Assembly: GCA_012103475.1 (NCBI GenBank)
Contig: WLWS01000002.1
Coordinates: forward strand, 618,081-682,080
Direction: 5' to 3'
From: Gammaproteobacteria bacterium
GTDB lineage: Bacteria > Pseudomonadota > Gammaproteobacteria > Eutrophobiales > Eutrophobiaceae
DNA: 64,000 nt
The position numbers and the translations under genes are program-made. Below are positions 6,009 to 28,506 of this stretch, one piece after another (within the stretch, counting starts at the first letter, position 1; each line of letters starts with the position of its first letter). Below the pieces are notes generated by a model. That model made no database searches, was not told the DNA's origin, and worked only from the letters and a program-made list of their open reading frames with translations.

Positions 6009-6029
6009 TAGAAAGGCGAGAATATTACT

Positions 6030-11103: not shown

Positions 11104-14100
11104 ATGTCGGCAACCTTATCAGTGCAGCCAAGTTCACCATTTGCCAGTGAGCAAAAAACCGAAAATATCAGGTTCATAACAGCAGCCAGTCTCTTTGATG
11201 GACATGATGCTGCAATCAATATTATGCGCAGGATACTGCAAGCATCTGGTGCAGAGGTCATACACCTGGCTCACAACCGTTCAGTCTCTGAAGTTATCGA
11301 CGCCGCCTTGCAGGAAGACGTACAGGGAATCGCCATTAGTTCTTATCAGGGTGGTCATATGGAGTATTTCAAGTACATGATAGATATGCTGCGAGAAAGT
11401 GGGGCCGCGCATATTAAGGTTTTCGGTGGTGGGGGAGGAGTCATCGTTCCAACCGAAATCGAGGAACTGCACAATTATGGGGTGACGAAAATATTTTCTC
11501 CGAATGACGGCCAGAAATTAGGACTTCAGGGTATGATTGATTCAATGCTGGAGCAGTGTTCTTTTGATTCTGATCTGCTTGTGCCTAAAACACTCAAAGA
11601 ACTAGGTTCGGGAGACAGATGTACCCTTGCTCGTGAAATAAGTGCTCTGGAAAATGATCATGTTGTTCAAACTGTGCGTGACGAAATCAGTAAAAGTGTA
11701 ACAGAATCAAGCAAAAAAACGCCTGTTTTAGGGATTACCGGCACCGGCGGGGCAGGCAAATCATCGCTTACTGACGAAATCATTCGACGCTTTCGAATTG
11801 ACGCTGAAGATCAGCTCAGAATTGCAATACTCGCTATAGACCCAACACGACGCAAAACCGGTGGGGCATTACTCGGTGATCGTATTCGAATGAACGCGAT
11901 CTATCATGAGAACATTTTTATGCGTTCGCTGGCAACGCGTGATTCAGTTTCGGAAGTTCCACCTTATCTACCAGACGTAATCAATGCCTGCAAGCTCTCT
12001 GGCTTTGATTTGATAATAGTAGAGACACCGGGTATTGGTCAGGGCGATGCGGGTATTGTCCCGTTTGTCGATACTTCATTATACGTAATGACACCTGAAT
12101 TCGGAGCGGCAAGTCAATTAGAGAAAATTGATATGCTTGATTTTGCCGATGTAATTGCGATCAACAAGTTTGACCGGAAAGGAGGAGAAGATGCTTTACG
12201 AGATGTAAGTAAACAGTTGCAGAGAAATCGTATGGCTTTTGAGCAATCCGTCGAAGAAATGCCGGTTTTTGGCACTATTGCGTCTAAATTTAATGATGAT
12301 GGCGTAACGGCCTTATATCAGGAAACACTCAGAACGCTACAATCCAAAGGACTTAAAGATTTTGATAACATACTACCCGTCCAGAGCGTAAAAACTTCCA
12401 GCGAAACCACGATTATTGTTCCTGCCGCAAGACAGCGTTATTTGGCGGAAATTGCCAGCTGCGTACGCGATTATCACGTCACTGTTAAAGAACAAGTGGT
12501 ATTTGCTAGAGAACGGCAGCAATTACAGGAAAGCCGGAGAATGCTGGCAAGCGAATCGAGTACGATAATCGATGAACTAGATAAGCTTATTGAAAAACGC
12601 TCGAATCAACTGGATTCTCGTGCCAGTAAACTTCTTGAAAACTGGCCACAGCAAAAAAAGGATTATAGTGGAGAGTTTTTTTTCAGCCAGAGTCGCGACA
12701 AAAAAGTCCGAACAAATTTGATAACGACGACTCTTTCGGGGACCAAAATCCCCAGAGTGATTTTGCCTGAGTATGAGGATGATGGAGAAATCTTGAAGTG
12801 GCTATTACTGGAAAACGTGCCTGGACGATTTCCTTTTACAGCTGGCGTATTTCCCTTTAAGCGAGAAGGTGAAGATCCGACACGCATGTTTGCCGGCGAA
12901 GGCGATCCCTTCCGTACGAATAAACGCTTTAAAAAATTATCCGAACATTCCAGTGCTAAACGACTGTCAACGGCATTTGATTCTGTAACACTCTATGGTT
13001 TCGATCCAGATGAACGTCCTGATATCTACGGCAAGGTAGGCAATGCCGGGGTCTCGATAGCAACGCTGGACGATATGAAAGCACTTTATGATGGCTTCGA
13101 TCTCTGTTACCCGGCAACATCTGTTTCGATGACGATAAATGGTCCGGCTCCGACCATACTGGCAATGTATCTCAATACTGCCATCGATCAACAAGTCGAA
13201 AAATTCATAGAAAAAAATGAATCAGAACCATCGGAAACTGAGCTTAAAGAAATCAGAGATTTTGCCTTAAGGAATGTTCGAGGAACGGTACAGGCTGATA
13301 TTTTAAAAGAAGATCAGGGGCAGAATACATGCATCTTTTCAACTGAATTCAGTCTGAAAATGATGGGCGATATCCAGCAGTATTTTATTGATGAGCAAAT
13401 CAGAAACTTTTATTCAGTTTCAATCTCCGGATATCACATTGCAGAGGCGGGGGCCAACCCAATCTCGCAATTGGCGTTTACGCTGGCTAATGGCTTTACT
13501 TTTGTCGAAGCTTATCTGGCCCGAGGTATGGATATTAATGATTTCGCTCCTAATCTGTCGTTCTTTTTTTCCAATGGTATGGATCCTGAGTACACAGTTC
13601 TTGGGCGCGTGGCGCGGCGCATCTGGTCGACTAGCATGCGATTTAAGTATGGTGCCAATGAAAGAAGCCAGAAATTGAAATACCACATACAAACATCCGG
13701 ACGGTCGCTGCATGCACAGGAAATGGCGTTTAACGATATTCGCACAACACTGCAAGCTTTGATCGCGATATATGATAATTGCAATAGCCTTCATACTAAT
13801 GCCTATGATGAAGCCATTACTACTCCAACTGAAGAATCTGTTCGTCGGGCGATGGCTATACAATTAGTTATAAATAAGGAATGGGGGCTTACCAAGAATG
13901 AAAACTCCAATCAAGGGGCTTTTATTATTGAAGAATTGACCAAGCTTGTTGAAGAGGCAGTATTGCAGGAATTTGAGAGGATATCTGAACGAGGAGGCGT
14001 TTTAGGCGCAATGGAGACCGGCTATCAGCGTGGCAAAATCCAGGATGAGTCGATGCTTTACGAACACAAAAAACACGACGGCAGCCTACCTGTTATTGGT

Positions 14101-14376
14101 GTGAATACTTTTCTTAATCCAGCTGAGCCTGAAAAATTCGAAATTGAACTGGCGCGTTCAACAGATTCCGAAAAACAAAGCCAGATTAAACGACTAGAAC
14201 AATTTAAAGATAAACATTCTGAATCATCTGTATCTGCGTTAGGTAAACTGCGTCAGGCAGCCATAAGTAATGATAATATTTTTGACGAATTAATGAACGC
14301 AGTACGCTGTTGCAGTCTGGGACAGATCACAGATTTGTTTTTTGAAATAGGCGGACAATATCGCCGAAATATGTGA
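11104..14376 (+). CDS. icmF: Fused isobutyryl-CoA mutase IcmF (B12-binding domain, MeaB-like G-protein, mutase catalytic domain)
   Basis: 1090 aa. N-terminal B12 domain ([10 protein letters not shown]), central P-loop GTGGAGKSS with INKFDRKG, and a C-terminal methylmalonyl-CoA-mutase-like barrel. Length and domain order match IcmF. Confidence 0.9.
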
Positions 14377-14391: not shown

Positions 14392-15576
14392 TTATTTTAC
14401 CAGCGAACCGAGATCGGCGAAGGCAGCAATAATCTTCTCTATTTGCTCGTCTGTGTGAGCAGCACTAACACTGCACCTGACCAGGCATTTTTTTCCAGGC
14501 GCTGCAGGAGGAAATACAAGGTTCACATAAACCCCGTGTTCCAGCAGGCCACGCCAGAAAGCAAGAGCTTGTTCTTTGGTATCCAGCATTACAGCAACAA
14601 CTGTGCTGATTTCAGGTCCTAGTTCATAATTCAGTTCGCTCAAACCCTCATACAGTTTTTGAGCATTGTTCCATAATTTCTTGCGTAGATGCTTTCCATC
14701 TCTAAGTATAGGCAGAGCCGCTCGCGTCGATGCAATTACCGAGGGTGAGGGGGATGCTGTAAAGACATAGGGTCTGCTGGCATAGCGTAGAAAATCAAGT
14801 TCAGGATGATTACTTGCACAATATCCACCTATGCTACCAAGACTTTTACTAAAGGTCCCAACCACGAAATCCACTTCATTCAGAACCCCACATTCTTCTA
14901 TGAGTCCCTGACCAGTCTCACCAAGCACACCCAACGAATGAGCCTCGTCAACCACAAGCAAACTGGAATATTTTTTCCTTACCTCTATTATCTCTTTTAA
15001 CGGAGCTCGATCACCGAGCATACTGTAAATTCCTTCAATAATGATGAGGGCATTGTTGGCGCGCTCGCCAAGGCGGGCAAGTCTTTTATCAAGATCTTCC
15101 GCGTTATTGTGGCGAAAACGGACAACATCCGCACCGCTTAGTTTACAACCGTCATAGATACTCGCGTGACAGTCAGAATCAATAACGATAACATCCCCAG
15201 CCTGCGTCAAACCTGAAATTACTGCGAGGTTAGCCTGATAACCTGTGGTAAATACAATGGCAGAACGCATCTGGTAAAACTCGGCCAGTTCTTTTTCAAG
15301 AGCCCGGTGTCCTGCGAAACTTCCGTTAGCCATTCGTGAGCCAGTGGTTCCCGTTCCCTGCTCATCAATAGCTTTGTGGGCAGCCTGCAGACATTCTGCA
15401 TTAAAAGTTAACCCTAGATAATTATTGGTACCGGCAAGTATGATTCGTCGCCCATCAATGCGAGCTTCTGTAGGAGAGTAAACTTCTTCTATGGGTGTGC
15501 CAAATGGATCAAAGCCGACTGATAACAACGCCTCTCTATCACTTGCCAGTGAGGAAAACTTATCGAAAAGGCTCAT
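14392..15576 (-). CDS. PLP-dependent alpha-oxoamine synthase, serine-palmitoyltransferase-like
   Basis: 394 aa. PLP-lysine region GTFSKSLGSIGGY and DEAHSLGVLGETGQG resemble bacterial SPT (GTFSKS.G..GG, DEAHS.G) more than BioF or Kbl. ATGA overlap with the upstream ACP gene. Confidence 0.85.
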   Translation of the reverse strand: MSLFDKFSSLASDREALLSVGFDPFGTPIEEVYSPTEARIDGRRIILAGTNNYLGLTFNAECLQAAHKAIDEQGTGTTGSRMANGSFAGHRALEKELAEFYQMRSAIVFTTGYQANLAVISGLTQAGDVIVIDSDCHASIYDGCKLSGADVVRFRHNNAEDLDKRLARLGERANNALIIIEGIYSMLGDRAPLKEIIEVRKKYSSLLVVDEAHSLGVLGETGQGLIEECGVLNEVDFVVGTFSKSLGSIGGYCASNHPELDFLRYASRPYVFTASPSPSVIASTRAALPILRDGKHLRKKLWNNAQKLYEGLSELNYELGPEISTVVAVMLDTKEQALAFWRGLLEHGVYVNLVFPPAAPGKKCLVRCSVSAAHTDEQIEKIIAAFADLGSLVK

Positions 15577-15827
15577 TCTGCTTTTGGTCCGAGTTCATGA
15601 ATTCGTTTGGCCATATCTGCGACTGTGCGGACATCAGCTAGCACATTCATAGGTATAGAAATATCAAATTCATCTTCAACTTCGAGCAGAAGATCCAATA
15701 CCTTAAAAGAGTCAAGGCCGAGACCATCAACCAGCTCGGTTGACTCATCAAATTCGGCATTGAGCTCGGCGACAGTTTCAAGTTGCTTGTTTAAGCGTCG
15801 AAGAACTTCATCATAACTTGCAGACAT
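15573..15827 (-). CDS. Dedicated acyl carrier protein
   Basis: 84 aa, acidic, with phosphopantetheine site LGLDSFKVLDLL. Translationally coupled to the SPT-like gene. Confidence 0.85.
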   Translation of the reverse strand: MSASYDEVLRRLNKQLETVAELNAEFDESTELVDGLGLDSFKVLDLLLEVEDEFDISIPMNVLADVRTVADMAKRIHELGPKAE

Positions 15828-15843: not shown

Positions 15844-16761
15844 CTATAATTGCAATAAATCAGGTGTATTCATGGCATCCGCTAATGTTATTGTGGGCGA
15901 CCAGCCCAGTGTGTTTGTCAGTGGGTGATTGTCACACACCCAGTTTAAATGAGTAATTTCCCTGACTTTACCCGGAGTCAGCATCGGTGAGTAACCGAGC
16001 AGTCTGGACATCTTTAAGTTAATTTTCGCGAATACCTCTAACAGTGGAACAGGAATAGGAATTCTGACCACTGATTTCCCCCAGACCTGATTTGTTAATT
16101 GAATCAGGGTCTCCCAATTATAACCATTCAGACTTCCATCATCCAATTCATAAATTCCTCCTGGGAAAGATTTCTGTTCGAGCCACATTCTAATAGCCAC
16201 GACTAAATCATCTATATGCAGCAAACTGAATTGCGATTGCGTATCCGGGGCAGGCAAAAAACCAGCTTTTAGTGATTTCAGTAAAGGTTTTATTTCTTTA
16301 TCCCCGGGACCATATATGGCAGTCGGCCGAAAAATTGTGGTCAAAACATTATTCTTTCGGGTAATCAATTCCGCCTCTGCCAGTCTTTTGCTTTTTGCAT
16401 ACCAGGAAAGTTGTGGCTCTCTTGCCGCGAGTGAAGATATGTGCAGAAGACGAATACGGGTGTTCTTAGATTGACAGGCGTTTAACAAATTAATACTGCC
16501 TGTGTTGTTGATTGAAACGAATTCCTTCAGTGAACTACCACGTACCGCCCCGGCACAATGAATGACGGTATCGACATTTTCTACGAGAGCATTTAATTGG
16601 GGTAAAGAGTGGAGGTCTCCGACTATCCAGTGAAGATTTTCTGTATCTTGCTGTTGTTTTCTACTAAGGGCTTTTACCCGAAATCCATGCTGAAGTAGGT
16701 CAGCGAGAATGGTTTTGCCTATGAATCCCGTGGCTCCGGTAAGTGCCACATATCCGGGCAT
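15844..16761 (-). CDS. NAD(P)-dependent epimerase/dehydratase-family reductase (extended SDR; CerR-like candidate keto-reductase)
   Basis: 305 aa with an N-terminal Rossmann motif TGATGFIGK. It sits between the FAAL and ACP genes. Confidence 0.8.
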   Translation of the reverse strand: MPGYVALTGATGFIGKTILADLLQHGFRVKALSRKQQQDTENLHWIVGDLHSLPQLNALVENVDTVIHCAGAVRGSSLKEFVSINNTGSINLLNACQSKNTRIRLLHISSLAAREPQLSWYAKSKRLAEAELITRKNNVLTTIFRPTAIYGPGDKEIKPLLKSLKAGFLPAPDTQSQFSLLHIDDLVVAIRMWLEQKSFPGGIYELDDGSLNGYNWETLIQLTNQVWGKSVVRIPIPVPLLEVFAKINLKMSRLLGYSPMLTPGKVREITHLNWVCDNHPLTNTLGWSPTITLADAMNTPDLLQL

Positions 16762-16765
16762 GTGC

Positions 16766-18523
16766 TCAGGAACTAACCAAGCTCAGCTTGTGGTTTGCTT
16801 CCTGATTCCAGTCCGCTCTTTCCATAAAGCCCTTTCGTGCGGCTACCCGTGAGAGCTTACCTGAGGATGTTCTTGGCAGTGTATGTTGCTTAACGAGTTC
16901 GACAACACAGTGTATACCAAAGCTTTCATAAACAAGTCTCTGCAATATGGAAATCAACGATTGTCTTTCAGAGGTTTTTGAAATTCTGCACTCGACGACC
17001 AGAACGACAGTTTGTTCTTCTTCTGTATCTTCTATTCCAAAAGCAGAGGCATCGCCCATTCGAATCTCGGGTTGCTGTTCTGCAAGTTCTTCAAGATCCT
17101 GAGCTCTGATATTGCGTCCATTAACGATAATTACGTCTTTTCGGCGTCCGCTTAAATAGAGATTTTCTTTGAAGATGTAGCCCAGATCACCAGTATCCAG
17201 CCATCCGTCTGCGCAAAGTACGCTATCTGTGGCTTCCTGATTGTTGAGATATCCTTCCATCAGACTCGGCCCACGCATCAGCACTCGTCCAATACGTAGA
17301 TCAGGTTGCAGTTCACCTGCATCGTTAACAATTTTGATTTCATGTTCAGGAAGCGCTTTACCGCAATTAACAATAGAGTTAATTTTTCTATTGTCAGATT
17401 GCACTCGTACAGCAACGCCTCGTTCTGCCAGAGCAAGTGCATCAATTACCATGACATCAAGACCTTCGCCAAGCGGAGAGAACGAGGCTGCAAGTGATGC
17501 CTCCGCAAGACCATAGCAAGGCAAAAAGGCCTTATCACTAAAATCTGCTGGTTTCAGGACAGAAGCAAAGTTATCAAGAATGCTGGGGCGAATCATTTCA
17601 GCACCAACACCGGCGACACGCCAACAACTAAGATCCAATTCGGCAAAGTCAGACTCTCTAACACGACGAGCACACAGTTCGTAGCCAAATGGCGGGCTGA
17701 AAGCGATGGTACATCGATTACGACTGATTAACCTGAGCCACTGCAAGGGTCGGATCGCGAAATCTCGTGTACGGATATAATCGACGGTCAACTGCGATAC
17801 GATTGGCCCTAAAACGAAGCCAACCAGACCCATATCGTGATAGAAGGGCAACCATGAAGCACATCTATCCCCGTCTTGCACTTCCAGGCCGCTACGAACA
17901 ATACCCTGCAAGTTACTCATAATAGCCCGTTCGCTGATAACTACACCTTGCGGGAATCGGGTACTACCAGAGGTAAACTGTAAATAGGCAGGCTCGTCAG
18001 TGGAGTTCACAGTAAACTCGACGTCCGCTTTTTCGAGTTCTTCTAATTGTCTTGCAGTACCAACCCATTTGATGTGATCTACATCTGCAGCAGCTTCCTG
18101 AAGAAAACCCTCGAATTCTTCCGGTGCGATTGCAATTGATGCTTCACCGCCGCGAAGTAAGCCGGTTAATTGTTGTACATAAATTTTATGACTGCCTAAA
18201 TTGACCGGAACAGGCATCGCGTATGGTAATAAGCCTGCGTAGCGGCAGGCAAAAAACAATACAATAAAATCGGCTTCTGTATCTGCAATTAAGGCCACAC
18301 GTTCGCCTTTTGTAAGACCTAATTTTAAAAGTCTTTGTGCAGAATCTTGAGCCCTTTGCTGAAGTTTTTTATAGGTGAGTACGTCTCTAAGCTTTCCCCG
18401 TGCATCAAAAAAATTGCAACCGGTTACACCTGAGGCCGCGTAATCTAAAGCTTCAGTGAGCGTATCGAAATCTGCTAATCGCCTCGGCAGAGTATTTATA
18501 GTTTTTGTTACGTCTTCAATCAC
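16766..18523 (-). CDS. Fatty acyl-AMP ligase / acyl-ACP synthetase
   Basis: 585 aa with FTSGSTRFPQGVVISE (a FAAL-type variant of the AMP-binding motif), GWLDTGDLG and a GTG start. First gene of the four-gene operon. Confidence 0.85.
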   Translation of the reverse strand: MIEDVTKTINTLPRRLADFDTLTEALDYAASGVTGCNFFDARGKLRDVLTYKKLQQRAQDSAQRLLKLGLTKGERVALIADTEADFIVLFFACRYAGLLPYAMPVPVNLGSHKIYVQQLTGLLRGGEASIAIAPEEFEGFLQEAAADVDHIKWVGTARQLEELEKADVEFTVNSTDEPAYLQFTSGSTRFPQGVVISERAIMSNLQGIVRSGLEVQDGDRCASWLPFYHDMGLVGFVLGPIVSQLTVDYIRTRDFAIRPLQWLRLISRNRCTIAFSPPFGYELCARRVRESDFAELDLSCWRVAGVGAEMIRPSILDNFASVLKPADFSDKAFLPCYGLAEASLAASFSPLGEGLDVMVIDALALAERGVAVRVQSDNRKINSIVNCGKALPEHEIKIVNDAGELQPDLRIGRVLMRGPSLMEGYLNNQEATDSVLCADGWLDTGDLGYIFKENLYLSGRRKDVIIVNGRNIRAQDLEELAEQQPEIRMGDASAFGIEDTEEEQTVVLVVECRISKTSERQSLISILQRLVYESFGIHCVVELVKQHTLPRTSSGKLSRVAARKGFMERADWNQEANHKLSLVSS

Positions 18524-18752: not shown

Positions 18753-19214
18753 TCATTTCCAGTTTGCAGGCAAAAAATCAGTAATCTTTTGATTCATTGC
18801 CTCACTTGTCTCATTTTTGCAGGCAAGGTCCGGAGGACCCGGCCAGGCTTTGTCTTCAAACTCAACCCCTTCAAAAACTTTTTTGTCTGCGTACCTCGGG
18901 ATAACATGAAAATGGACATCCGGATCGACCATCATTAGCATCAAGTAGTTCAATTTGTCGTAGTCGAATGTCTTTTTCAAACAAGTTTCAATATCAACCG
19001 TTACCTGTCCAAGTTCAGCAAAGCTGGCTGCACTTAAATCAGAGAAGGCTTTTACAGGCTCCAAAGCCGCTAAAACCAAGGCACCCAGAGTCGCTTGTTG
19101 AGGTCTTAACATGACAAGCCAGTGCTGATAGTGGTAAATACAGCTATCTGGCGCACCAAACTTCAACATTGTTGCGTTCAATGCTTGCGTGTCAAGATTA
19201 AGATTATCTGCCAT
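18753..19214 (-). CDS. HIT-family nucleotide hydrolase/transferase
   Basis: 153 aa. The histidine-triad region reads DVHFHVIPR: the first His is replaced by Asp, and the nucleophile-position His is retained. Confidence 0.75.
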   Translation of the reverse strand: MADNLNLDTQALNATMLKFGAPDSCIYHYQHWLVMLRPQQATLGALVLAALEPVKAFSDLSAASFAELGQVTVDIETCLKKTFDYDKLNYLMLMMVDPDVHFHVIPRYADKKVFEGVEFEDKAWPGPPDLACKNETSEAMNQKITDFLPANWK

Positions 19215-19454
19215 CTATATGAATAATATAATAAAAAAAATGGATTGCACTCAAATATTTTAAACACCTTTTAGCCTGCATTGCGGCGGAAACTTCATCC
19301 GTTCATTTGTCTTGAACCCGATTACCCTGGAACTGTGCTAACGTCGCTATTGTTCAGCGAGCCTGACATCGAGTCAGGGTTGGATAATATCTTTGTGGTA
19401 AAGTGTGATGCTTCGTCGGTAATATTGATAAATATAATAAGAACAAGGACTTAA

Positions 19455-20306
19455 GTGAATAGTAAAATGAACACTGGGGTTGACGAACAGAAATTTGTAG
19501 CCATCGTATTGGCGGGCGATCGTAGTAATGCTGACCCGGTTGCAGCTCATTCCGGGACAAGTTGTAAGGCGGTGGCCGATATATACGGAAAACCGATGGT
19601 GACTCGAGTGCTCGATGCTCTCCAGGCAAGTGGCAGAGTTAAATCGATAATTCTGTGCGGTCCAGCTCAGACTGGGCTGGACGAGTGCCCCGAGTTACTC
19701 AATCGTATAGAAACAGACGGTATTCAATGGCTTCGGAATTCGGAATCCCCGAGTCGCAGTGTCGAAACGGCGCTCGAGCTTGTCGATGAGTCAGAACCGG
19801 TTTTTCTCACGACTGCCGATCATGCTTTGTTGTCGGCTGATATTGTCAGGTATTTCTTAAGTGAAGCTCTTGATAATCAAGTGGATTTTAACGTCGGGCT
19901 GGTTGATTACTCTACAGTACAGAGCGCCTACCCGGAGGTAAAACGTACTGTCATCAAGCTTAAAGAAAAAGGAGTTTGCGGTTGTAACCTGTTTGCCATA
20001 ATGACTCTTGAGGGACGGAAACTAGTCTCGTTCTGGCGCAATGTGGAACAATCTCGTAAAAAGCCCGCAAAAATGCTTGCAGGCGTGCTGGGTGTAGGTG
20101 GTGTCTTGTCTTATCTGTTGCATAGACTGACTATTGAAGGTGCGCTTGAAAAAGTCTCGAGTAGACTGGGTGTCAAGGTAAAGCCCGTGATTCTGCCCTT
20201 TGCCCGGGCCGGAATTGATGTTGATACCGTCAAAGACAAACTTCTGATAGAAAAAATACTCGCTAATGACTCAGTGACAGTTTCAAGTGAAAAACCTGCT
20301 AACTAG
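19455..20306 (+). CDS. MobA-like (NTP_transf_3-type) nucleotidyltransferase with a C-terminal extension
   Basis: 283 aa. FVAIVLAGDRS...GKPMV pattern. AAGGA lies 5 nt upstream of the GTG at 19455; an alternative ATG is at 19467. Confidence 0.65.
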   Translation: MNSKMNTGVDEQKFVAIVLAGDRSNADPVAAHSGTSCKAVADIYGKPMVTRVLDALQASGRVKSIILCGPAQTGLDECPELLNRIETDGIQWLRNSESPSRSVETALELVDESEPVFLTTADHALLSADIVRYFLSEALDNQVDFNVGLVDYSTVQSAYPEVKRTVIKLKEKGVCGCNLFAIMTLEGRKLVSFWRNVEQSRKKPAKMLAGVLGVGGVLSYLLHRLTIEGALEKVSSRLGVKVKPVILPFARAGIDVDTVKDKLLIEKILANDSVTVSSEKPAN

Positions 20307-21040
20307 CTAATATTTGAAGGGGCGAGAATTTCCTGAGCGGATTCCAAATCATGGATGAAGTCAATTTCTGCCCAGCGATGCCCGGATATTGAGCAAGACG
20401 TGACTTTTCCATCTCGTGCCATAGCATCGACAACTGACAGAAACCAGGACTTTAAGCCTGAGGGTTTACGCATAGCATTTTCGACCGAATTTCTAAATTG
20501 GCGTGGGCCGTCACCACGGAAATAGAGCATGCCGATCGATTCCGCGTGAGTTTGCTCTGGACTGAGGATTTTGCTGACCCCTTTGACTTGCCTGTCTTCT
20601 AATGTGACTTTCATATCATCTTCATCGTACTTTTCCTTGAAATCTATCGTCAGGGTTACCGGGGCAGACTCTGATTTTAAAACATGTTCCAATAAAGATG
20701 TTTCATACACGGTGTCGCCATTAATTAGGAGAAAATCCTCATTCATCTCCTGGCGAGCAAGCCAGCAACTTGCCAGATTGTCTGAAACATTGAAGAAAGG
20801 GTTAAAAACAAATCCTATTTGAGGTTTATCCGCATAGTTTGAATCGAGTAAGTTCTCGACTTGTTCACTATGAAATCCGGTAATAATGCTGATTTCTGTA
20901 ACATTACAGGCAAGAAGCGCATCCAATTGCCACTGCAGCACTGATTTGCCTGCAATTTCCAACATGCATTTCGGACAGTTTTCGGTCAGAGGTAAAAGCC
21001 TGCGCCCTTGCCCTGCGCTAAGTATTATCGCTTTAGTCAT
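20303..21040 (-). CDS. Sugar/alcohol-phosphate nucleotidyltransferase (LicC/IPCT-like cytidylyltransferase fold)
   Basis: 245 aa. N-terminal AIILSAGQGRRLLPLT...PKCML signature. Its 3' end overlaps the convergent gene by 4 nt. Confidence 0.8.
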   Translation of the reverse strand: MTKAIILSAGQGRRLLPLTENCPKCMLEIAGKSVLQWQLDALLACNVTEISIITGFHSEQVENLLDSNYADKPQIGFVFNPFFNVSDNLASCWLARQEMNEDFLLINGDTVYETSLLEHVLKSESAPVTLTIDFKEKYDEDDMKVTLEDRQVKGVSKILSPEQTHAESIGMLYFRGDGPRQFRNSVENAMRKPSGLKSWFLSVVDAMARDGKVTSCSISGHRWAEIDFIHDLESAQEILAPSNIS

Positions 21041-21170: not shown

Positions 21171-22244
21171 ATGACCAAGATAGAACGTTACATATTCCTT
21201 GAGGTACTTAAGCCTCTTGCCGCAGTCCTAGGAATTCTGGTTGGATTATTTGCCTGTTTTAGCAGCGCTCGCTATCTGGCTGAAGCAATAACGGAAACTC
21301 TTGGTTTGGCGCTTATGCTCAAGCTGGTGTTTTTGAAAACAGTCATTGCACTTGAAGTTCTGGTTCCGGTGGCGCTCTATGTCTCAATTATTATCGGTCT
21401 TGGACGTATGCATCGTGATCAGGAAATAATTGCCATGCGTGCAGCTGGCATTCGTGGCACCCGGATAATCCGGGCTATCCTCTGGGTCGCGATTCCTGTA
21501 GGACTAATTGTTGGCTTATTGTCCGTGATAGGCAGGCCCCTGGCTTATGCCGATAGTTATTTACTGGACGCCAGAGCCAATGCGGAATTAAATACGGATA
21601 GATTCCAGGCCGGTCGTTTCTACGGAAATGAGGACAGCGGCAGAGTAGTCTACATTAACAAAAAGAACGAATCTTCAGGGCAGATGAGTGAGATATTTCA
21701 TTACATTGACAAGCACGATGCGAAGGAGATTATCGTTTCAACTCGTGCTACCCAACAAGCTGCGCAAGACGGGCTTCGCAATGAACTTCATCTCTTTGAT
21801 GGCACCATCCACAGGTTGATGTACGGAGAAGAAAAGGATGAAGTGATTACTTTTGAAAAACTGGTTTTGTATATCGACAATGCCGAAGAGGATATTGGTT
21901 ATAAAAGAAAAGCCGCCGCAACCGTCGACTTGATCCATTCGGAAGAAGCCAATGATGTGGCGGAATTGCAATGGCGTCTGTCAAGGCCCTTAGCTACGCT
22001 CTTACTAGCTCTGATAGCTGTGCCACTAAGCAAATCTTCTCCTCGACAGGGCCGGAACGAGAAAATATTCACCGCAGCGATGATATTTGCTCTCTATTAC
22101 AATATAAGCGGGCTTGCTCGCACCTGGGTGGAGCAGGGAGTAGTAGGGAGTTTTCCGGGAATTTGGTGGCTGCAAGTAGTACTTGTTGTTCTTGTCGCGA
22201 TAATGTTACTGCCTGAATTCAGAACTGGGAGACGTGTCCCATGA
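21171..22244 (+). CDS. lptF: LPS export ABC permease LptF
   Basis: 357 aa. MTKIERYIFLEVLKP... N-terminus and YjgP/YjgQ-type topology (3 TM, periplasmic domain, 3 TM). ATGA coupling to lptG. Confidence 0.85.
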   Translation: MTKIERYIFLEVLKPLAAVLGILVGLFACFSSARYLAEAITETLGLALMLKLVFLKTVIALEVLVPVALYVSIIIGLGRMHRDQEIIAMRAAGIRGTRIIRAILWVAIPVGLIVGLLSVIGRPLAYADSYLLDARANAELNTDRFQAGRFYGNEDSGRVVYINKKNESSGQMSEIFHYIDKHDAKEIIVSTRATQQAAQDGLRNELHLFDGTIHRLMYGEEKDEVITFEKLVLYIDNAEEDIGYKRKAAATVDLIHSEEANDVAELQWRLSRPLATLLLALIAVPLSKSSPRQGRNEKIFTAAMIFALYYNISGLARTWVEQGVVGSFPGIWWLQVVLVVLVAIMLLPEFRTGRRVP

Positions 22245-23305
22245 CTCTCCTGGAAAATTATATTGTCCGCCAAATTGGAGCAGGGCTCGCCATATCTGCA
22301 GCGGTTTTAATACCTTTGTTCAGTTTTCTTGACCTTATTGAACAGCTCGATGATGTCGGAGAAGGCTTCTATCGAACTAGAGATGCCTTTATTTATGTGA
22401 TCTACCTTCTCCCAAGACGATTTATTGAATTGGCGCCTTTTATTGCATTATTGGGAACCGTGATCGGTCTTGGAAGGTTGGCTGTTAATCTGGAGTTAAT
22501 TACCATGCGTGCGGCTGGTCTGTCACCCATGCGAATTAGTCTGGTTGTGCTCAAAGTGGGTTTTTTCCTACTCATTTTATTGACTGTGCTGGAACAATAT
22601 GTCGCACCAAAATACCAGCAAAAAGCGATATCTCATCGTGCTGAAGCACTGGCGCAAAGTGCAGAGTTAGGAAGTGATCTCGGCACCTGGACTCGCGATA
22701 AGAGTCAGGTTTTACGAATTGGAGAGAGTGCGCCGGGAAGTCTGATGCGTGATATTGAGATAATGACCTTTGATCAAGATGGATCTTTGAGGGAACACCT
22801 AAATGCGGAATACGCTGAAATAGTTACCGCAAGTGAATGGGAGCTCTCAAACGTCACTCGCAGAAAATTTTCCAAAAGAAGTCTCGAGACCAGCCATTTT
22901 GAGAATATTCTCTGGAGACCTTTTCTTAATTCTGAGCAGATGGCGACTTTAAACAGACCAGCTGAAAGTTTGTCACCGGTGGAGCTATATCAATACGTTA
23001 GCTATTTGAAAAAAACCGGACAGAAGTCCGATGCTTATGAACTGGCTCTTTGGCGTAAATTCGGCGGCGGACTGGTCACCATTGCCATGCTCTTACTTTC
23101 TGTACCCTTCGTATTCGGTTCGGTGCGAGGTGGCATTGCTAACAGACTGGTCCTGGCAGGAATTACCGGGATTTGCGTTTATTTGCTTGACCAGATTGCA
23201 GCAAACGTTGGCTTACTACTGGATCTTAGCTTTCCTCTTGTTGCCCTTGCGCCAGGATTGATCCTGATCTGGATAGCGGTGGCGTGGCTACAACGTATCG
23301 CCTAG
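22241..23305 (+). CDS. lptG: LPS export ABC permease LptG
   Basis: 354 aa. LENYIVRQI..., LELITMRAAGLSPMRI, and the same topology as LptF. Confidence 0.85.
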   Translation: MTLLENYIVRQIGAGLAISAAVLIPLFSFLDLIEQLDDVGEGFYRTRDAFIYVIYLLPRRFIELAPFIALLGTVIGLGRLAVNLELITMRAAGLSPMRISLVVLKVGFFLLILLTVLEQYVAPKYQQKAISHRAEALAQSAELGSDLGTWTRDKSQVLRIGESAPGSLMRDIEIMTFDQDGSLREHLNAEYAEIVTASEWELSNVTRRKFSKRSLETSHFENILWRPFLNSEQMATLNRPAESLSPVELYQYVSYLKKTGQKSDAYELALWRKFGGGLVTIAMLLLSVPFVFGSVRGGIANRLVLAGITGICVYLLDQIAANVGLLLDLSFPLVALAPGLILIWIAVAWLQRIA

Positions 23306-23327: not shown

Positions 23328-24320
23328 TCAGGCGGCCGGAAGATTAAGTTCAAATTCTTTAAGCACAGAATATGATTCTGCCTCGATTTCCAATCGGCGC
23401 GACTGAACTCGCAGGCTCCACCCTTCAGGAATTCTTTCAATTTCATATAGATTATAACCGGATCGTTTACTCGTTGAAGTTGAGAGAACTGAGGCAGAAG
23501 CAGCCCCAATCACAGGTATTTTCAATTTATCACTCTGCAGAAAATCCCAAACCGGATAGTGGCCATGTCCATGAACAATCAACTCCGCGCCATGGGAGAC
23601 AATTGATTGTCGAAATTCATGAGCATCTCTGAGTCTTTTTCTAAACTTATTACTAGTCTGCAAAGGACCGTGATGAAGCATCACAATTCTGAACAGGCCC
23701 ATTTTTTTTGTTTTCACCAGTAATTGCTCAAGGTCCTGAATTTGTTTTTGGCCCAACTCACCGGTAGCAAAAAAAGGCGAAGTTGGCAGTGCTGTGGACA
23801 GACCAATTATTGCCAGCGGTCCACGTTGTCTAAAGCTGGGGAAAAGCGGGGGCTTATGATTGTCAGAATTGACACTGTCACTTGCTATATAGTCTGACCA
23901 CAGGCCAAAAGTCCGGCTTATATCATCTTTTGTGTAGTAATCGTGATTTCCGGGAATAAGCGAGATATTTTCCGCTGTGCCAAGATCCGACAACCAGCTT
24001 CTGACCTGTCGACATTCTGCAGCAGTTCCGATGTGAGTAAGATCTCCACTGATGAGCAAATGCCCAAGCTCATTGGAACTGAGATCGTTAAGTAACTTGT
24101 CTAGAATATCCAGACGTTGAATATGTCGGCGCGAAAACCTCCAGGACAAATAACCCAGTATTCGTTTGCTCAGTAACTGCTGCCAGCTTACACCGCTCAG
24201 ATCACTTAAATGCGGATCAGAAATATGGGCTATACGGACGGGGCCGACGCCATTATTAGCAGATGGGGGTAAAAATTTCATCATGCCTGTATCATATCGT
24301 CCGAATTTACCAATAGCCAC
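23328..24320 (-). CDS. Calcineurin-like metallophosphoesterase
   Basis: 330 aa. Motifs ISDPH, GDLTH, GNHDY, MLHH and GHGH. The track start at 24320 is GTG; an ATG at 24284 (MMKFLPP) is a plausible alternative. Confidence 0.8.
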   Translation of the reverse strand: MAIGKFGRYDTGMMKFLPPSANNGVGPVRIAHISDPHLSDLSGVSWQQLLSKRILGYLSWRFSRRHIQRLDILDKLLNDLSSNELGHLLISGDLTHIGTAAECRQVRSWLSDLGTAENISLIPGNHDYYTKDDISRTFGLWSDYIASDSVNSDNHKPPLFPSFRQRGPLAIIGLSTALPTSPFFATGELGQKQIQDLEQLLVKTKKMGLFRIVMLHHGPLQTSNKFRKRLRDAHEFRQSIVSHGAELIVHGHGHYPVWDFLQSDKLKIPVIGAASASVLSTSTSKRSGYNLYEIERIPEGWSLRVQSRRLEIEAESYSVLKEFELNLPAA

Positions 24321-24352: not shown

Positions 24353-25561
24353 ATGAATACATTATATGTTTACCTGCTGAAAGATACGGAGACGGTTTTG
24401 TGGGGTTTGAGTGGGAAATCCCGACTCGTTCGCATGCTCGAATCAAAAGCAGGGATGGTTCTTGTAGAGTCCCTGGATGAGATTCCGGATGAATCCTGTG
24501 TTCTATTGTTGCTCAGTGATTACCTGTATGACCCGCGTATTTTGAGCAATTTGATGTCTGGTTCTGAGCAACTTGCCCTTAAGGCAAGTACTGAAGAAAA
24601 CATTGTGGCGGCAAAGGTTGTTGTAATTAATGCCCGCCAGGCCAGTCTGGAGTTGTCAGGAAAATCGGAATTCAGTTTGCTTTCTGAATTACCGTCTGTA
24701 CTGCCTGAAGAACTTGTTAAAGCATATGATGCGAAGTTACTTAAATACGATCCCCCAGAAATATTAGCAATCAATGAACAAAACAAAACTCAGCTCGAAA
24801 ATGAATTATTCAATGGTTCTTACAAGGGTATCACCGATATCGTTACCAAATGGCTTTGGCCCTTACCGGCAAAGGCAGCTGTCAAATTCTGTGTCAAACA
24901 GGGTCTTTCTGCAAATCAGGTAACATTATTCAGTTTTGTTTTGGCGCTTCTGGCAGGTTTCGCTTTTGCTTATGGATTTTTCATTTCCGGCCTGATGATG
25001 GGTTGGTTAATGACTTTCCTGGATACTGTGGATGGTAAATTGGCTCGAGTGACTGTCAGTTCAAGCAAAATCGGCGATATACTTGATCATGGACTCGACC
25101 TCGTTCATCCACCACTATGGTATCTGGCCTGGGCCCTTGGAATAGCAGGTGTCTGGATGTCACCGACTCTGGTGATGCCTATGTTCTGGATTATTCTACT
25201 GGCCTACATTGGTGGTCGTTTTTGCGAAGGCGCTTTTGATCTCTGGATAGCACCTTTTCGTTTATTCCTCTGGCAACCATTTGATTCATACAATCGTCTG
25301 ATCACAGCCCGACGCAACCCTAACATGATTTTATTAACAGCCTCATTATTTTTTGACCGCCCGGATCTTGGACTTTACTCAGTTGCAGCCTGGCACGTTT
25401 TCTCCACAATAATTCTTTTCATCAGAGTTATTATGGCTATGAAAGAGAAAAAACGGGTGGGTGAACTGGAAACATGGCTCAACACTATTGACCCGGTAAA
25501 TGATCTCGGCCGTCTTGAAGTTCGCCTGTTTACGCGGCTTTCCAAATCCAGTCTGGTGTAA
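24353..25561 (+). CDS. CDP-alcohol phosphatidyltransferase with an N-terminal extension of about 150 aa
   Basis: 402 aa. The family motif D-G-x2-A-R-x8-G-x3-D-x3-D is seen as DTVDGKLARVTVSSSKIGDILDHGLDLVHP, with multiple TM helices after residue 170. Confidence 0.8.
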   Translation: MNTLYVYLLKDTETVLWGLSGKSRLVRMLESKAGMVLVESLDEIPDESCVLLLLSDYLYDPRILSNLMSGSEQLALKASTEENIVAAKVVVINARQASLELSGKSEFSLLSELPSVLPEELVKAYDAKLLKYDPPEILAINEQNKTQLENELFNGSYKGITDIVTKWLWPLPAKAAVKFCVKQGLSANQVTLFSFVLALLAGFAFAYGFFISGLMMGWLMTFLDTVDGKLARVTVSSSKIGDILDHGLDLVHPPLWYLAWALGIAGVWMSPTLVMPMFWIILLAYIGGRFCEGAFDLWIAPFRLFLWQPFDSYNRLITARRNPNMILLTASLFFDRPDLGLYSVAAWHVFSTIILFIRVIMAMKEKKRVGELETWLNTIDPVNDLGRLEVRLFTRLSKSSLV

Positions 25562-25566
25562 ATAGT

Positions 25567-26556
25567 ATGACTGAGTATACGCAACAGCGATTCCGTAAAA
25601 TCGGAATTCTGTGCAATCCGAAAGCGGGCAGGGTCAAAAACAAAACCGGAGAGATAAGAGCCCAATCAGAATCGCTTCCCGGTGTCGCTTATCGCGAAGC
25701 GCGAGTCCCTGAAGAATTTGCAATAGTGATTAAGGAATTCGTTGCGTTAGAAATTGATTTGTTTGTAATTATTGCCGGTGACGGTACTATTCACGCGGTA
25801 CTGACACAAATTTTCAACGCGCACCTTTTTCAAACCACCCCTGTCTTGTCATTTGTTCCTGCGGGAACAACGAATATGACAGCACTCGATAGTAAGATGA
25901 ATGGCAAGCCCGAATTAGTTTTGGCCAGATTAATTCAACAGTTAAAAGAAGGTAGTCAGCCTCAGATAAAAACGCAGAAACTAGTCAAAGTGCAATGTGG
26001 TAAAACAGAAAGCCAGTACGGCTTTTTCCTCGGGATCGGTGTAATCGCAGAGGCGGTAGCTTATTTTCAGAACAATATTAAAAAAACCGGGTTGACAGGC
26101 GAGGGGGCTTCGGCAATTGTTTTTATTCGTTTTCTGTTAATATTGGTTTTCAATCGACGTCAAATAAACCAATCAATAATCGAGCTTCACTCGGATGATT
26201 TCCAATTCAATCAAGGTCCCTGTCTTGTCTTGCTCATTAGTTCTTTACACAGACTTTTGTTCGGAATGAGACCTTATTGGGGGTCTGAAACTGGGGCACT
26301 TCATATGACCCTTGTCAGTGAACCACCACGAAGATTATGGCGTTCGTTGTTTGCCTTATTGAATGGCAAAGGACATCAACTATCTGAAGAAGATGGCTAT
26401 TCGAGTCACAATGTGAACAAAGTGTCTATTAAGATGAAAGGTAAATACGTTATTGATGGAGAGATATATTCGGTATCACCCGACGCAATGGGGATTGAAG
26501 TAAGTGCCGATACCTCTGTGTCAATTTTACAGCCTGAGGAGCTCCTCCGTGCCTGA
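25567..26556 (+). CDS. Lipid kinase of the DAGK catalytic / LCB5 family (diacylglycerol, sphingosine or ceramide kinase-like)
   Basis: 329 aa. Motifs ILCNPKAGR, VIIAGDGTIHAVL and PAGTTNMTA. Confidence 0.8.
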   Translation: MTEYTQQRFRKIGILCNPKAGRVKNKTGEIRAQSESLPGVAYREARVPEEFAIVIKEFVALEIDLFVIIAGDGTIHAVLTQIFNAHLFQTTPVLSFVPAGTTNMTALDSKMNGKPELVLARLIQQLKEGSQPQIKTQKLVKVQCGKTESQYGFFLGIGVIAEAVAYFQNNIKKTGLTGEGASAIVFIRFLLILVFNRRQINQSIIELHSDDFQFNQGPCLVLLISSLHRLLFGMRPYWGSETGALHMTLVSEPPRRLWRSLFALLNGKGHQLSEEDGYSSHNVNKVSIKMKGKYVIDGEIYSVSPDAMGIEVSADTSVSILQPEELLRA

Positions 26557-27511
26557 TGCTGTCAATAACCTGGCCCCACCTGCGGCTCTGGTTGCAGAAA
26601 AAGCATCTGAATGTGCGCGAGTCGTACCTGGTGGCTTTCATGTTTTTGTCGGAGCTCTGGAGAAACATTTCGGAGAATCGCTGCAAGCGGTGCTTTTGTA
26701 TGGTTCCTGTCTCCATAGCTATGATCTTAAAGACAGTGTGGTCGACCTCTATGTGTTGGTTGACGATTATGACAAAGCCTACACTAGCTCATTATTCTCA
26801 TACTTGAACAAGATTGTTCCACCAAACGTGTTTTATCTTGAATTGGAACATGAAGGAATGACCCTGCGTTGTAAGTATGGAGTAATAACACTGAGTGATT
26901 TCGAAAAGGGTGCATCTTCATGGTTTCACTCTTATATCTGGGGCAGATTTTCACAACCGGTCCGATTACTTTATTTTCGAAATGAAGACGCAAGATTAAA
27001 AGTGTTAGAGACACTGGCTCAGGCTACTATTACGTTTTTGCGCGCCACTGTGCCAGCTCTTGGAAGAAGTGTCGTAGATACTGAAACAATCTGGAGTCGC
27101 GGTCTCGCGCTTTCATATAATGCAGAGCTTCGTCCTGAGCAAAAAAACAGGGCGCGGCAACTAACACATCTGAACATGGGTGATTATATTCGTCTTACTG
27201 CTTATTCACAGGAAATGATTGAACTGCTTGAAGCTTTACCACATGACAGATACAACTGTACAGCAAATGAAAAAGAGTGCCTTCGGGCATTACGTAAATG
27301 GCGTTTTCGAAGATGGCAGGGCAGAGTGTTGTCTGTTATGCGCTTAACTAAAGCAGTATTTACTTTCAGAGACTGTGTCGACTATGCCGCGTGGAAAATA
27401 GAAAGACATACAGGAATAAAAATTGAGCTTACTACCCGACTACGTAATCATCCGATCTTATTCGGTGGGAAAGTGCTGTGGCAGTTGATAAGGCAAGGAG
27501 TAATGCACTGA
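26504..27511 (+). CDS. Tam41/Mmp37-like nucleotidyltransferase (phosphatidate cytidylyltransferase-like)
   Basis: By eye, its blocks align with yeast Tam41 blocks. LLYGSC matches GYGSG, VDLYVLVDD matches IDIILGV, NVFYLE matches GVYFNPF, RCKYGVITLSDF matches VKYGVVSMETL, SYIWGRFSQPVRLL matches FYLAGRLQKPVKIL, and LSYNAELRPE matches LSYAGDIRY. The start is uncertain: GTG at 26504 gives a 53-nt overlap, while GTG at 26549 gives an 8-nt overlap with the kinase stop. Confidence 0.65.
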   Translation: MPIPLCQFYSLRSSSVPDAVNNLAPPAALVAEKASECARVVPGGFHVFVGALEKHFGESLQAVLLYGSCLHSYDLKDSVVDLYVLVDDYDKAYTSSLFSYLNKIVPPNVFYLELEHEGMTLRCKYGVITLSDFEKGASSWFHSYIWGRFSQPVRLLYFRNEDARLKVLETLAQATITFLRATVPALGRSVVDTETIWSRGLALSYNAELRPEQKNRARQLTHLNMGDYIRLTAYSQEMIELLEALPHDRYNCTANEKECLRALRKWRFRRWQGRVLSVMRLTKAVFTFRDCVDYAAWKIERHTGIKIELTTRLRNHPILFGGKVLWQLIRQGVMH

Positions 27512-27532: not shown

Positions 27533-28285
27533 ATGCAGACTGAAGCACCAAATAAGAAAAAACGCAAGCACCGCACGAGTGTGGCTGCTGGTTTGTGGCT
27601 GATTAAGCGAATAGAAAAATTTCTAATGCGCTATTCCGAGTTTCAGGATCAACCCTTTCTCGACGTGCAGAAGTTTAAATGGCATGAGTCATTAGAAACG
27701 GACTGGAAAAAAATAAGACTGGAACTGGACAACATCCTCCAGCACCCGGAAACAATTCCAAACTTTCAGGATATTTCTAAAGATCAGACAAATCTGACTA
27801 AGGACAATCACTGGAAATCATTCTTTCTATTCGGTTATGGCTATAAGTTTGAGCCAAATTGCGAATTGTGTCCGGAAACGACAAAACTGGTTGAATCAAT
27901 ACCCGGAATGTTCACGGCTTTTTTTTCAATACTATCCCCAGGCAAACATATACCCAGACATCGGGGGCCGTACAAAGGTTTATTGCGTGGTCACCTGGGA
28001 CTCATTGTCCCCGAACCAAAAGAAGAATGCTGGATACAGGTGGGAGAGGAAAAGGCGAACTGGCAGGAAGGTAAGTGTTTGGTTTTTGATGACACCTATA
28101 AACATCAGGTCCAGAACAATACAAATGGAACGCGAGTTGTCTTGTTTCTTGATGTTCTCAGACCGCTTCGTTTCCCGGGATCTGTGGTCAACAAACTGAT
28201 CCTTCAATTAATCAGAATGTCACCTTTTATTCAGGATGCCAGACGAAATCAAATTGCCTGGGAGAAGCGACTAGGTGATGATTGA
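27533..28285 (+). CDS. Fe(II)/2-oxoglutarate aspartyl/asparaginyl beta-hydroxylase family protein (LpxO/OlsC-like lipid acyl hydroxylase)
   Basis: 250 aa. Motifs ILSPGKHIPRHRGPYKGLLRGHLGLIVP, W.EGKCLVFDDTYKH and TRVVLFLD. Last gene of the plus-strand lipid operon. Confidence 0.8.
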   Translation: MQTEAPNKKKRKHRTSVAAGLWLIKRIEKFLMRYSEFQDQPFLDVQKFKWHESLETDWKKIRLELDNILQHPETIPNFQDISKDQTNLTKDNHWKSFFLFGYGYKFEPNCELCPETTKLVESIPGMFTAFFSILSPGKHIPRHRGPYKGLLRGHLGLIVPEPKEECWIQVGEEKANWQEGKCLVFDDTYKHQVQNNTNGTRVVLFLDVLRPLRFPGSVVNKLILQLIRMSPFIQDARRNQIAWEKRLGDD

Positions 28286-28293
28286 TCTCGTAT

Positions 28294-28506
28294 TTATGGA
28301 ATGACCAGTTTCACGATTGTGAATATAGTGAGATGAAAAACAATCACTAGAAAAATCCCCATAAATATATACGGTTTTATTCCTTTTTTTTCGATGTATG
28401 CGTTATCACGCTCGAAGTTTCTTTTGTTTTGAACGCCTACGAAAGAGGCCAGCATGCTCCATAATATCTGTAAAGCATTCGGGTCTTTGCTATTTTCATT
28501 TTCCAT
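28294..28506 (-). CDS. Small membrane protein (DUF2970-like)
   Basis: 70 aa. FVGVQNKRNFERD followed by one TM helix. The family assignment is from memory only. Confidence 0.45.
   Translation of the reverse strand: MENENSKDPNALQILWSMLASFVGVQNKRNFERDNAYIEKKGIKPYIFMGIFLVIVFHLTIFTIVKLVIP

Follow-up and report, generated by a model that had tools for sequence, protein, structure and literature searches.

A 64,000-nucleotide (nt) stretch of contig WLWS01000002.1, from an uncultured gammaproteobacterium of the family Eutrophobiaceae (hereafter the window), carries an open reading frame (ORF) for a 'hypothetical protein' that sequence comparison identifies as an orthologue of Caulobacter CpgC (CC_1161/CCNA_01219). 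The ORF lies in a complete sphingolipid locus, and its product is predicted to be a cytidine triphosphate (CTP):ceramide-1-phosphate cytidylyltransferase that makes cytidine diphosphate (CDP)-ceramide, a reading to which we assign a probability of roughly 60%. The CpgC family, its genetics and its Tam41 domain were already known, and the window ORF is a further family member; what is added here is the occurrence of kinase-CpgC fusions together with junction statistics, the confirmation of the Tam41 link by structure and profile comparison, a list of invariant residues and an explicit reaction.

The ORF runs on the forward strand from 26504 to 27511 and encodes 335 amino acids (aa) from a GTG codon, as an earlier note on this DNA had stated. 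The six peptide strings quoted in that note are all found, in the order given (LYGS at residue 65, VDLYVLVDD at 80, NVFYLE at 108, CKYGVITLSDF at 123, SYIWGRFSQPVRLL at 143 and LSYNAELRPE at 203, in the 335-aa numbering), and both of the overlaps with the upstream kinase gene (25567..26556, +) that it described are present, 53 nt from GTG 26504 and 8 nt (GTGCCTGA) from GTG 26549. Judged from the sequence, GTG 26549 is most likely the true start, giving a protein of 320 aa. This start is favoured because the public gene call (P0001, 320 aa) begins there, because a Shine-Dalgarno (SD)-like GAGGAG within the 3' end of cpgB (26536..26541, +) lies 7 nt upstream, because the resulting N-terminal length equals that of 31 homologues and because, in the closest relative, locus L007, a gap of only 5 nt separates cpgC from the kinase stop, where an extension of 15 residues cannot fit. 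The alternative start at GTG 26504 was rejected, as nothing SD-like precedes it, it is not conserved and L007 offers no space for it; the 15 codons concerned (26504..26548, +), which fall outside the gene call and have no equivalent in homologues, are probably untranslated. The gene is accordingly placed at 26549..27511 (+), its annotation drawing on the Pfam family PF09139, on AlphaFold2 and Foldseek and on identity to CpgC, and residue numbers refer to the 320-aa protein unless stated otherwise.

In Caulobacter crescentus the sphingolipid locus spans CC_1152-CC_1168, with cpgC directly after cpgB, and its anionic products, ceramide phosphoglycerate (CPG) and CPG2, permit survival without lipid A and are the target of colistin in that organism. 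CpgB is a biochemically proven ceramide kinase that is reported to phosphorylate diacylglycerol (DAG) too, CpgD is a CTP:phosphoglycerate cytidylyltransferase, cpgA encodes a PgsA/CDP-alcohol phosphatidyltransferase domain, and LptF2/G2 export the sphingolipid together with LptB. Knockout and complementation showed that deletion of cpgC leaves ceramide and ceramide-1-phosphate in place and abolishes both CPG and CPG2, whereas strains deleted for cpgA, cpgD or CC_1153 still make CPG.

Caulobacter-type reference proteins were found by way of the published reverse primer for cc_1160, whose genomic portion of 22 nt matches three metagenome contigs exactly. Two of these contigs reach past the kinase stop, and each has there a 293-aa ORF in an ATGA overlap, starting MSRLR as the cc_1161 forward primer encodes. 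The cc_1161 primers had no exact match in those contigs, and the reference proteins are close relatives of CC_1161 rather than CC_1161 itself. The window protein is 33-35% identical to them over 294-303 columns (BLASTP, E = 3e-43 to 5e-44), and the A1 profile matches Caulobacter-type CpgC with E = 1.5e-41 at Z = 1.8e9 sequences. Gene order agrees with this. On contig L090, which has the Caulobacter order, the window genes cpgD, CC_1153-like, lptG2, HIT, phosphoesterase, cpgA, cpgB, spt and acpR all have homologues, and the bacterial ceramide synthase gene bCerS is present as well. On a Roseomonas mucosa chromid the block of phosphoesterase (-), cpgA, cpgB and cpgC known from the window lies next to spt. 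In published BLAST tables the counterparts of CC_1161, at 30-32% identity, are Neut_1106, Avin_44370 and a Pseudomonas luteola gene, and the gene order around these three, in Nitrosomonas, Azotobacter and P. luteola, is the one seen in Nitrosomonadaceae and in the relatives of the window.

All of the sphingolipid-locus genes that were tested (spt, acpR, cerR, aasR, lptF2/G2, cpgA and cpgD) lie between 14392 and 28285, bCerS excepted, and this 14 kb of the window is one sphingolipid synthesis and export locus. The earlier note had expected the operon context to be informative on the native substrate, and so it is: since cpgC lies among sphingolipid genes and the adjoining kinase is the counterpart of the ceramide kinase CpgB, the substrate would most likely be ceramide-1-phosphate and not phosphatidate.

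The relation of the window protein to Tam41 was examined with sequence profiles. Zik et al. (2022) reported 'no conserved domains' for CC_1161, and Olea-Ozuna et al. (2024, S1 Text) already stated that CC_1161 homologues have a Tam41 domain. The window protein scores 27.2 bits against the Tam41_Mmp37 model of Pfam (PF09139; InterPro IPR015222), above the curated gathering score of 24 (E = 3e-6), and the match is significant though marginal and partial, covering residues 94-211 and profile positions 68-178 of 322. Precomputed PF09139 hits are present on many close CpgC homologues and missing from many others, which places the CpgC family at the edge of this model, and a scan of NCBIfam returned no model for the cpgC ORF. 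As a single sequence against the PDB, the protein found only Tam41 chains, and these weakly (7ecd, E = 0.069; 6ig2, E = 0.24). A family profile matched 6ig2, which is Schizosaccharomyces pombe Tam41 (SpTam41), with E = 6e-4 when built from 32 sequences and E = 4e-6 when built from 130. The 130-sequence profile pairs, collinearly, YGS with YGS, llDlY with mIDFI, raKyAv with iIKYGV, WaRfaQPv with AGRFQKPV and lsYraELR..aE with LSYLGDIR..AE, and alignments by hidden Markov model (HMM) also pair GRFsQPV with GRFQKPV, D-l-Y with ID-F, KYGV with KYGV and LSY..ELR..E with LSY..DIR..E. Five of the six blocks that the earlier note gave as collinear with Tam41 therefore hold; the exception is NVFYLE, where only the adjacent VFY aligns (with VYY).

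The 130 representatives in this profile are 29-50% identical to the window protein, with a mean column identity of 35%, and 11 residues are invariant among them: G52, D66, P92, K109, R133, Q136, E193, R195, E197, Y279 and K283. Most of these align with conserved Tam41 motifs (G52, D66, K109, R133, R195 and E197). In the HMM alignment D66, K109, R133, P137, Y190, R195 and E197 are paired with Asp, Lys, Arg, Pro, Tyr, Arg and Glu of SpTam41, respectively, the N-terminal piece of that alignment not being significant alone. Tam41 is reported to retain only one of the three canonical acidic residues of nucleotidyltransferases (NTases), and the CpgC family likewise has one invariant Asp in its NTase motif. 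Further conservation is found in a C-terminal block of the CpgC family, comprising W251, R265, K268, Y279, K283, R286 and H287.

A model of the protein predicted by AlphaFold2 from the family alignment has a mean confidence (pLDDT) of 88.7 and a predicted template modelling (TM) score, pTM, of 0.86. When it was compared with the PDB by Foldseek, ranks 1-5 were all Tam41 chains (6ig4, 7ecd and 6ig2; E = 1.3e-8 to 1.5e-7) with TM scores of 0.48-0.61 over 277-282 aligned columns of 320; the next family, ANT(4')/aminoglycoside nucleotidyltransferases, followed with E = 4e-5 or worse and TM ~0.27. The NTase domain is present and, in the model, precedes a helical/winged-helix domain; this is the Tam41 architecture known from 6IG2 and 7ECD. 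The resemblance of the cpgC ORF to Tam41 exceeds chance, and the assignment of the ORF as Tam41/Mmp37-like in the earlier note is supported alike by the profile HMM, the search of the PDB with a family profile and the predicted fold. As judged by sequence divergence, the CpgC family is a sister family rather than canonical Tam41, a real but distant relative. That note had also held that bacterial homologues exist and are poorly characterised; they do exist, but the novelty was overstated, given the knockout phenotype of CpgC, the Tam41 domain noted in 2024 and the Tam41 of Firmicutes, for which a crystal structure and CDP-DAG synthase activity are available.

Tam41 is described as membrane-bound through a basic amphipathic C-terminal helix. 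In the window protein the hydrophobic moment peaks in helix 301-318 (0.47), and the net charge summed over the final 80 residues is +12. These sequence statistics are compatible with a basic amphipathic C-terminal helix, which could hold CpgC at the inner membrane in the same way.

The CpgC family is large: clustering at 90% identity leaves over 3,500 groups, and at 50% identity there are 1,388 representatives (E <= 1e-3), 493 of them with E <= 1e-30. Species-representative genomes contain 578 confirmed cpgC loci. Named members of the family include Geminicoccaceae, Deltaproteobacteria and Nitrospirota, and carriers of the locus include ammonia oxidisers, uncultured Gammaproteobacteria, Roseomonas and an IncP Pseudomonas plasmid. 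There were no alphaproteobacteria among the best 80 loci of the genome scan, a gap that was bridged by a plasmid collection and by the primer-based metagenome scan. For 47 loci with full 10-kb flanks, neighbours were counted within 10 kb of cpgC: the kinase gene was present in 46, always adjacent, lptG2 and bCerS in 45 each, lptF2 in 44, the CC_1153-like gene in 38 and cpgA in 34.

The junction between the kinase gene and cpgC is nearly always tight. Among 83 junctions, a gap of 0-30 nt separates the genes in 61, they share 1-11 nt in 10, the distance is larger in 5, and in 7 the genes are fused without an intervening stop codon. The seven fused ORFs, kinase-CpgC and 666-736 codons from stop to stop, occur in Nitrosomonas and Nitrosospira (L026 68-2278; L056 8846-10939; L057 8936-10939; L062 8855-10939; L070 8393-10393; L077 8846-10939; L084 8891-10939), and an independent metagenomic fusion (P0122, 662 aa) has a DAGK_cat domain at 19-127 and a CpgC-like domain at 343-662. 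Natural fusions are classic evidence for two enzymes that act consecutively, and adjacency, tight junctions and fusions together suggest that the kinase and CpgC do so. Translational coupling of the two genes had been proposed in the earlier note from the overlap, and a tight link to the kinase is borne out, both by the overlap in the window and by the 78 of 83 related loci in which the genes are at most 30 nt apart, overlapping or fused.

Taken together, the fusions and the coupling to the kinase gene, and the conserved residues that align with Tam41, point to synthesis of CDP-ceramide. We infer that CpgC uses CTP, that CDP-ceramide is its product and that it is associated with the membrane. 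CpgC would treat ceramide-1-phosphate as Tam41 treats phosphatidate, such that the lipid phosphate would attack the alpha-phosphate of CTP to give CDP-ceramide and pyrophosphate. An alcohol, either glycerate or a phosphoglycerate with subsequent dephosphorylation, would then resolve CDP-ceramide to ceramide phosphoglycerate, and this resolving step may take place in CpgC itself, or may be carried out by a housekeeping enzyme or by a further transferase or other protein. CpgD and CpgA would add the second phosphoglycerate, and LptF2/G2 would export the lipid.

Several observations weigh against this scheme. CpgA, the only CDP-alcohol phosphotransferase of the locus, is dispensable for CPG in Caulobacter, so one step is left without an assigned enzyme. 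The match to Tam41 is distant, in that the structural alignment shows ~15-17% identity at TM ~0.5 and only a third of the Pfam model is covered, and two aligned positions deviate, Q136 standing where Tam41 has Lys (GRFxKP) and E193 where Tam41 has Asp. The window is without bCerS, so that the locus alone does not guarantee this organism a supply of ceramide, and hence of the substrate. Finally, 'CDP-ceramide' was not found in the literature searched.

The missing transferase can also be read in favour of a different reaction, in which CpgC alone attaches glycerate to ceramide-1-phosphate without free CDP-ceramide, either by nucleotide activation and glycerate resolution in the same active site or by use of another activated glycerate donor. 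Among the genes of the Caulobacter locus only CpgB and CpgC are needed for CPG, which leaves a separate transferase unaccounted for; the conserved C-terminal block from W251 to H287, which has no demonstrated counterpart in Tam41, could form a second substrate site; and cpgC mutants are described in the literature as cofit with those for enzymes of gluconeogenesis that provide phosphoglycerate or phosphoenolpyruvate. However, such a reaction is not known for Tam41 or any other lipid enzyme of the NTase fold, CPG does not depend on the obvious donor, CDP-glycerate, since it accumulates in cpgD mutants, and the residues that CpgC has in common with Tam41 speak for an identical first half-reaction. 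We consider such a one-enzyme transfer unlikely, though it is the alternative that best survives.

A second question is whether the lipid substrate is ceramide-1-phosphate at all. An ordinary bacterial Tam41 would be a soluble or peripheral CDP-DAG synthase that acts on phosphatidate and feeds the neighbouring CDP-alcohol phosphatidyltransferase; CDP-DAG synthesis is the only activity demonstrated in the Tam41 family, the Firmicutes enzyme included, and the reported phosphorylation of DAG by CpgB besides ceramide would fit. The gene travels, however, with spt, bCerS and lptF2/G2 and not with glycerolipid genes, the defect of the Caulobacter mutant is specific to sphingolipids with ceramide-1-phosphate retained, and CpgC proteins form a large clade of their own at ~15-17% identity to characterised Tam41s, all of which makes this explanation quite improbable. 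That CpgC merely accompanies the kinase without catalytic activity, for example as a subunit for lipid binding or scaffolding with a degenerate NTase fold, would suit the single acidic residue left in the NTase motif and the tight coupling, sometimes fusion, to the kinase, but we regard it as very improbable, because active Tam41 shows the same single-Asp arrangement, because 11 residues, Tam41-motif positions among them, are invariant in 130 representatives and because the cpgC knockout still makes ceramide-1-phosphate, which means that the kinase works without CpgC.

Synthesis of CDP-ceramide by CpgC thus remains the reading we prefer. As far as the window is concerned, the gain lies mainly in annotation, in that a 'hypothetical protein' becomes a CpgC orthologue. 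For the pathway it concerns the one step in adding the first head group for which papers of 2025 and May 2026 still call the chemistry unidentified, and a gap four years old is made directly testable. More tentatively, the kinase and CpgC may constitute a 'ceramide activation module' of general occurrence, with CDP-ceramide, a liponucleotide never described before, as its product. If this is true, Proteobacteria and some Nitrospirota and Deltaproteobacteria would build the head groups of phosphosphingolipids by way of CDP-ceramide, mirroring the CDP-diacylglycerol pathway, and the lipid that results would be set by the downstream alcohol, which would be glycerate in Caulobacter, perhaps glycerol phosphate in Zymomonas and a different one in other organisms. 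Mitochondrial Tam41 and the bacterial sphingolipid enzyme would then be sister branches of one superfamily of lipid-phosphate cytidylyltransferases.

The remaining genes of the locus were assigned by domain matches and by comparison with related loci, chiefly that of L090. The gene overlapped by cpgC is the cpgB orthologue, which encodes a lipid kinase of the DAGK_cat/LCB5 type, predicted to be a ceramide kinase (25567..26556, +; DAGK_cat E = 1.3e-12; 27.5% identity, E = 9e-19, to the L090 kinase). Before it lies the cpgA orthologue (24353..25561, +; PF01066 E = 1.7e-7; 34.5%, E = 2e-58 to L090), a CDP-alcohol phosphatidyltransferase with an N-terminal cytoplasmic domain of ~170 aa, and CC_1159 has been described in the same terms. 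Divergent from cpgA is a calcineurin-like metallophosphoesterase gene (23328..24320, -; Metallophos E = 6e-12; 35%, E = 6e-49 to L090), the counterpart of CC_1158, whose product is 38% identical to that of the Roseomonas gene (L089) and which is also present in L004, L005, L007 and L035. Olea-Ozuna et al. (2024) reported the cluster in beta- and gammaproteobacteria and found no CC_1158 orthologue in the three genomes they examined, whereas the window phosphoesterase is a clear counterpart.

Two genes follow whose homologues in related loci carry the LptF_LptG Pfam domain, lptG2 (22241..23305, +) and lptF2 (21171..22244, +), sphingolipid-locus paralogues of the lipopolysaccharide (LPS)-export permease genes lptG and lptF. 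The cpgD orthologue (20303..21040, -) encodes a COG1213-type nucleoside triphosphate (NTP) transferase (NTP_transferase E = 3e-14; 44%, E = 1.5e-61 to L090); in a PDB search with this protein CpgD itself was not among the entries, and the best match was LicC (1jyk). The CC_1153-like gene (19455..20306, +) encodes a MobA/CofC-type nucleotidyltransferase (NTP_transf_3 E = 7e-14; 30%, E = 1.4e-20 to L090), and a HIT-family gene (18753..19214, -; HIT E = 1.7e-4; 46%, E = 6e-41 to L090) is the counterpart of CC_1157.

The sphingoid base and acyl-chain genes complete the locus on its left side. They are an aasR-like gene for an AMP-binding acyl-acyl carrier protein synthetase (16766..18523, -; AMP-binding E = 2e-54; 48% to the fatty acyl-AMP ligase of plasmid pPNP1), a cerR-like gene for a nicotinamide adenine dinucleotide (NAD)-dependent reductase (15844..16761, -; Epimerase E = 1.2e-22; homologues in L088 and L089), an acpR-like gene for a specialised acyl carrier protein of 84 aa, recognised as an ORF with the motif GLDSFKVLDL (15573..15827, -; matches in L090 and L088), and spt, for serine palmitoyltransferase, a class-II aminotransferase (14392..15576, -; phmmer E = 8e-134 to Sphingomonas wittichii 2x8u; 54% to L090). 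The spt call is unambiguous, as the KBL/AONS paralogues reach only about 1e-67 by phmmer. Just upstream of spt is an IcmF-like gene of 1,090 aa (11104-14376), unrelated to the sphingolipid genes, with fused B12-binding, MeaB and methylmalonyl-CoA-mutase parts.

bCerS is cleanly absent, with no remnant either in the 240-bp gap between the HIT and CC_1153-like genes (19215-19454) or across the 64-kb window. In L007, the nearest relative, whose CpgC is 73% identical, bCerS sits exactly at that gap (L007 1739-2900). Either bCerS has moved elsewhere in the genome of the window organism, or this organism cannot N-acylate the long-chain base.

The operon has a fourth gene, 21 nt after cpgC, which encodes an Fe/2-oxoglutarate acyl hydroxylase of the OlsC/LpxO family (27533..28285, +; Asp_Arg_Hydrox E = 1.4e-54); its match to the NCBIfam model OlsC has E = 5e-78, yet lies under the cut-off of that model. 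The gene holds the same position in L004, L005, L035, L053 and L081, and a 65% identical copy is found on pPNP1. The hydroxylase probably acts on an acyl chain of ceramide. In Caulobacter, a DesA-family enzyme, which is unrelated and whose gene lies outside the locus, is credited with hydroxylation of the ceramide acyl chain, and the window hydroxylase therefore looks like a non-orthologous replacement, a lineage-specific addition. Directly 3' of the operon is a small DUF2970 gene (70 aa, 28294-28506, -), which is kept downstream of cpgC in the two closest relatives, L007 and L008 (58-59%).

From Pfam and NCBIfam alone, the locus was at first read as a pathway for LPS/lipid-A modification or for inositol-phosphate lipids, the CDP-alcohol transferase being like archaetidylinositol-phosphate/DIPP synthases and the NTP transferase like IPCT. 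This was dropped because spt, acpR, cerR and aasR adjoin and because the locus matches the Caulobacter literature gene for gene. Promoter and terminator scans of the window gave background levels and were uninformative on operon boundaries. The GC content stays between 43 and 46% along the window and gives no hint of recent transfer. Unrelated to the sphingolipid genes, the window also contains genes for the alpha and beta subunits of nitrile hydratase at 5364-6698.

Observations on related loci were made as well. The IncP plasmid pPNP1 of Pseudomonas sp. JS425 (NZ_CP073662.1 62829-83722, L088) carries nearly the whole cluster for sphingolipid synthesis, head group and export (spt, acp, cerR, acyl-AMP ligase, bCerS, lptF/G, kinase, cpgC, hydroxylase, cpgA and cpgD), adjoining an IS5 transposase and a class 1 integron integrase, with a near-identical match on the Pseudomonas plasmid NZ_CP097491.1. 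These plasmid copies suggest that the sphingolipid locus can move horizontally. A DUF2141 gene that is not present in the window stands beside the kinase-cpgC pair in Qipengyuania citrea (L087 10684-11181, -), where the pair is alone and the other locus genes are not nearby, and in the Roseomonas mucosa locus (L089 6384-6905, +). Three metagenome-assembled genomes (L053, L078 and L008) that carry the sphingolipid cluster, with CpgC 48-72% identical to that of the window, are labelled 'Klebsiella pneumoniae' or 'uncultured Enterobacteriaceae', and they are probably mis-assigned environmental gammaproteobacterial bins.

Among known systems, Caulobacter CpgC is the closest. The window gene shares with it the family, the place after cpgA and cpgB, the surrounding genes and an overlapping start, which is ATGA in the Caulobacter-type contigs and GTGCCTGA in the window. 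The window protein is 27 residues longer, and its operon adds the OlsC/LpxO-type hydroxylase in a locus without bCerS. Tam41/TAMM41 (S. pombe 6IG2/6IG4; Firmicutes 7ECD) resembles CpgC in its two-domain fold, in the motifs YGS, single Asp, KYGV, GRFxxP and SY..[DE].R..E, perhaps in a basic amphipathic C-terminus and, by analogy, probably in a chemistry that joins a lipid phosphomonoester with CTP; it differs in its cardiolipin and phosphatidylglycerol context as opposed to a sphingolipid one, in its likely substrate, phosphatidate rather than ceramide-1-phosphate, and in having no demonstrated counterpart of the extra conserved C-terminal block of CpgC. With ANT(4')/AadA and other Pol-beta-type NTases CpgC has in common the NTase core with its GS...D motif, whereas these enzymes have a full acidic triad, another second domain and small-molecule substrates, and their Foldseek match is much weaker. 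CdsA/CDS would be alike by function only, as an analogous enzyme that uses CTP to activate a lipid phosphate to a CDP-lipid for head-group exchange. Its fold is unrelated, an integral membrane protein of nine helices with an Asp-Asp dyad, whereas the window protein is modelled as a soluble or peripheral protein of the NTase fold.

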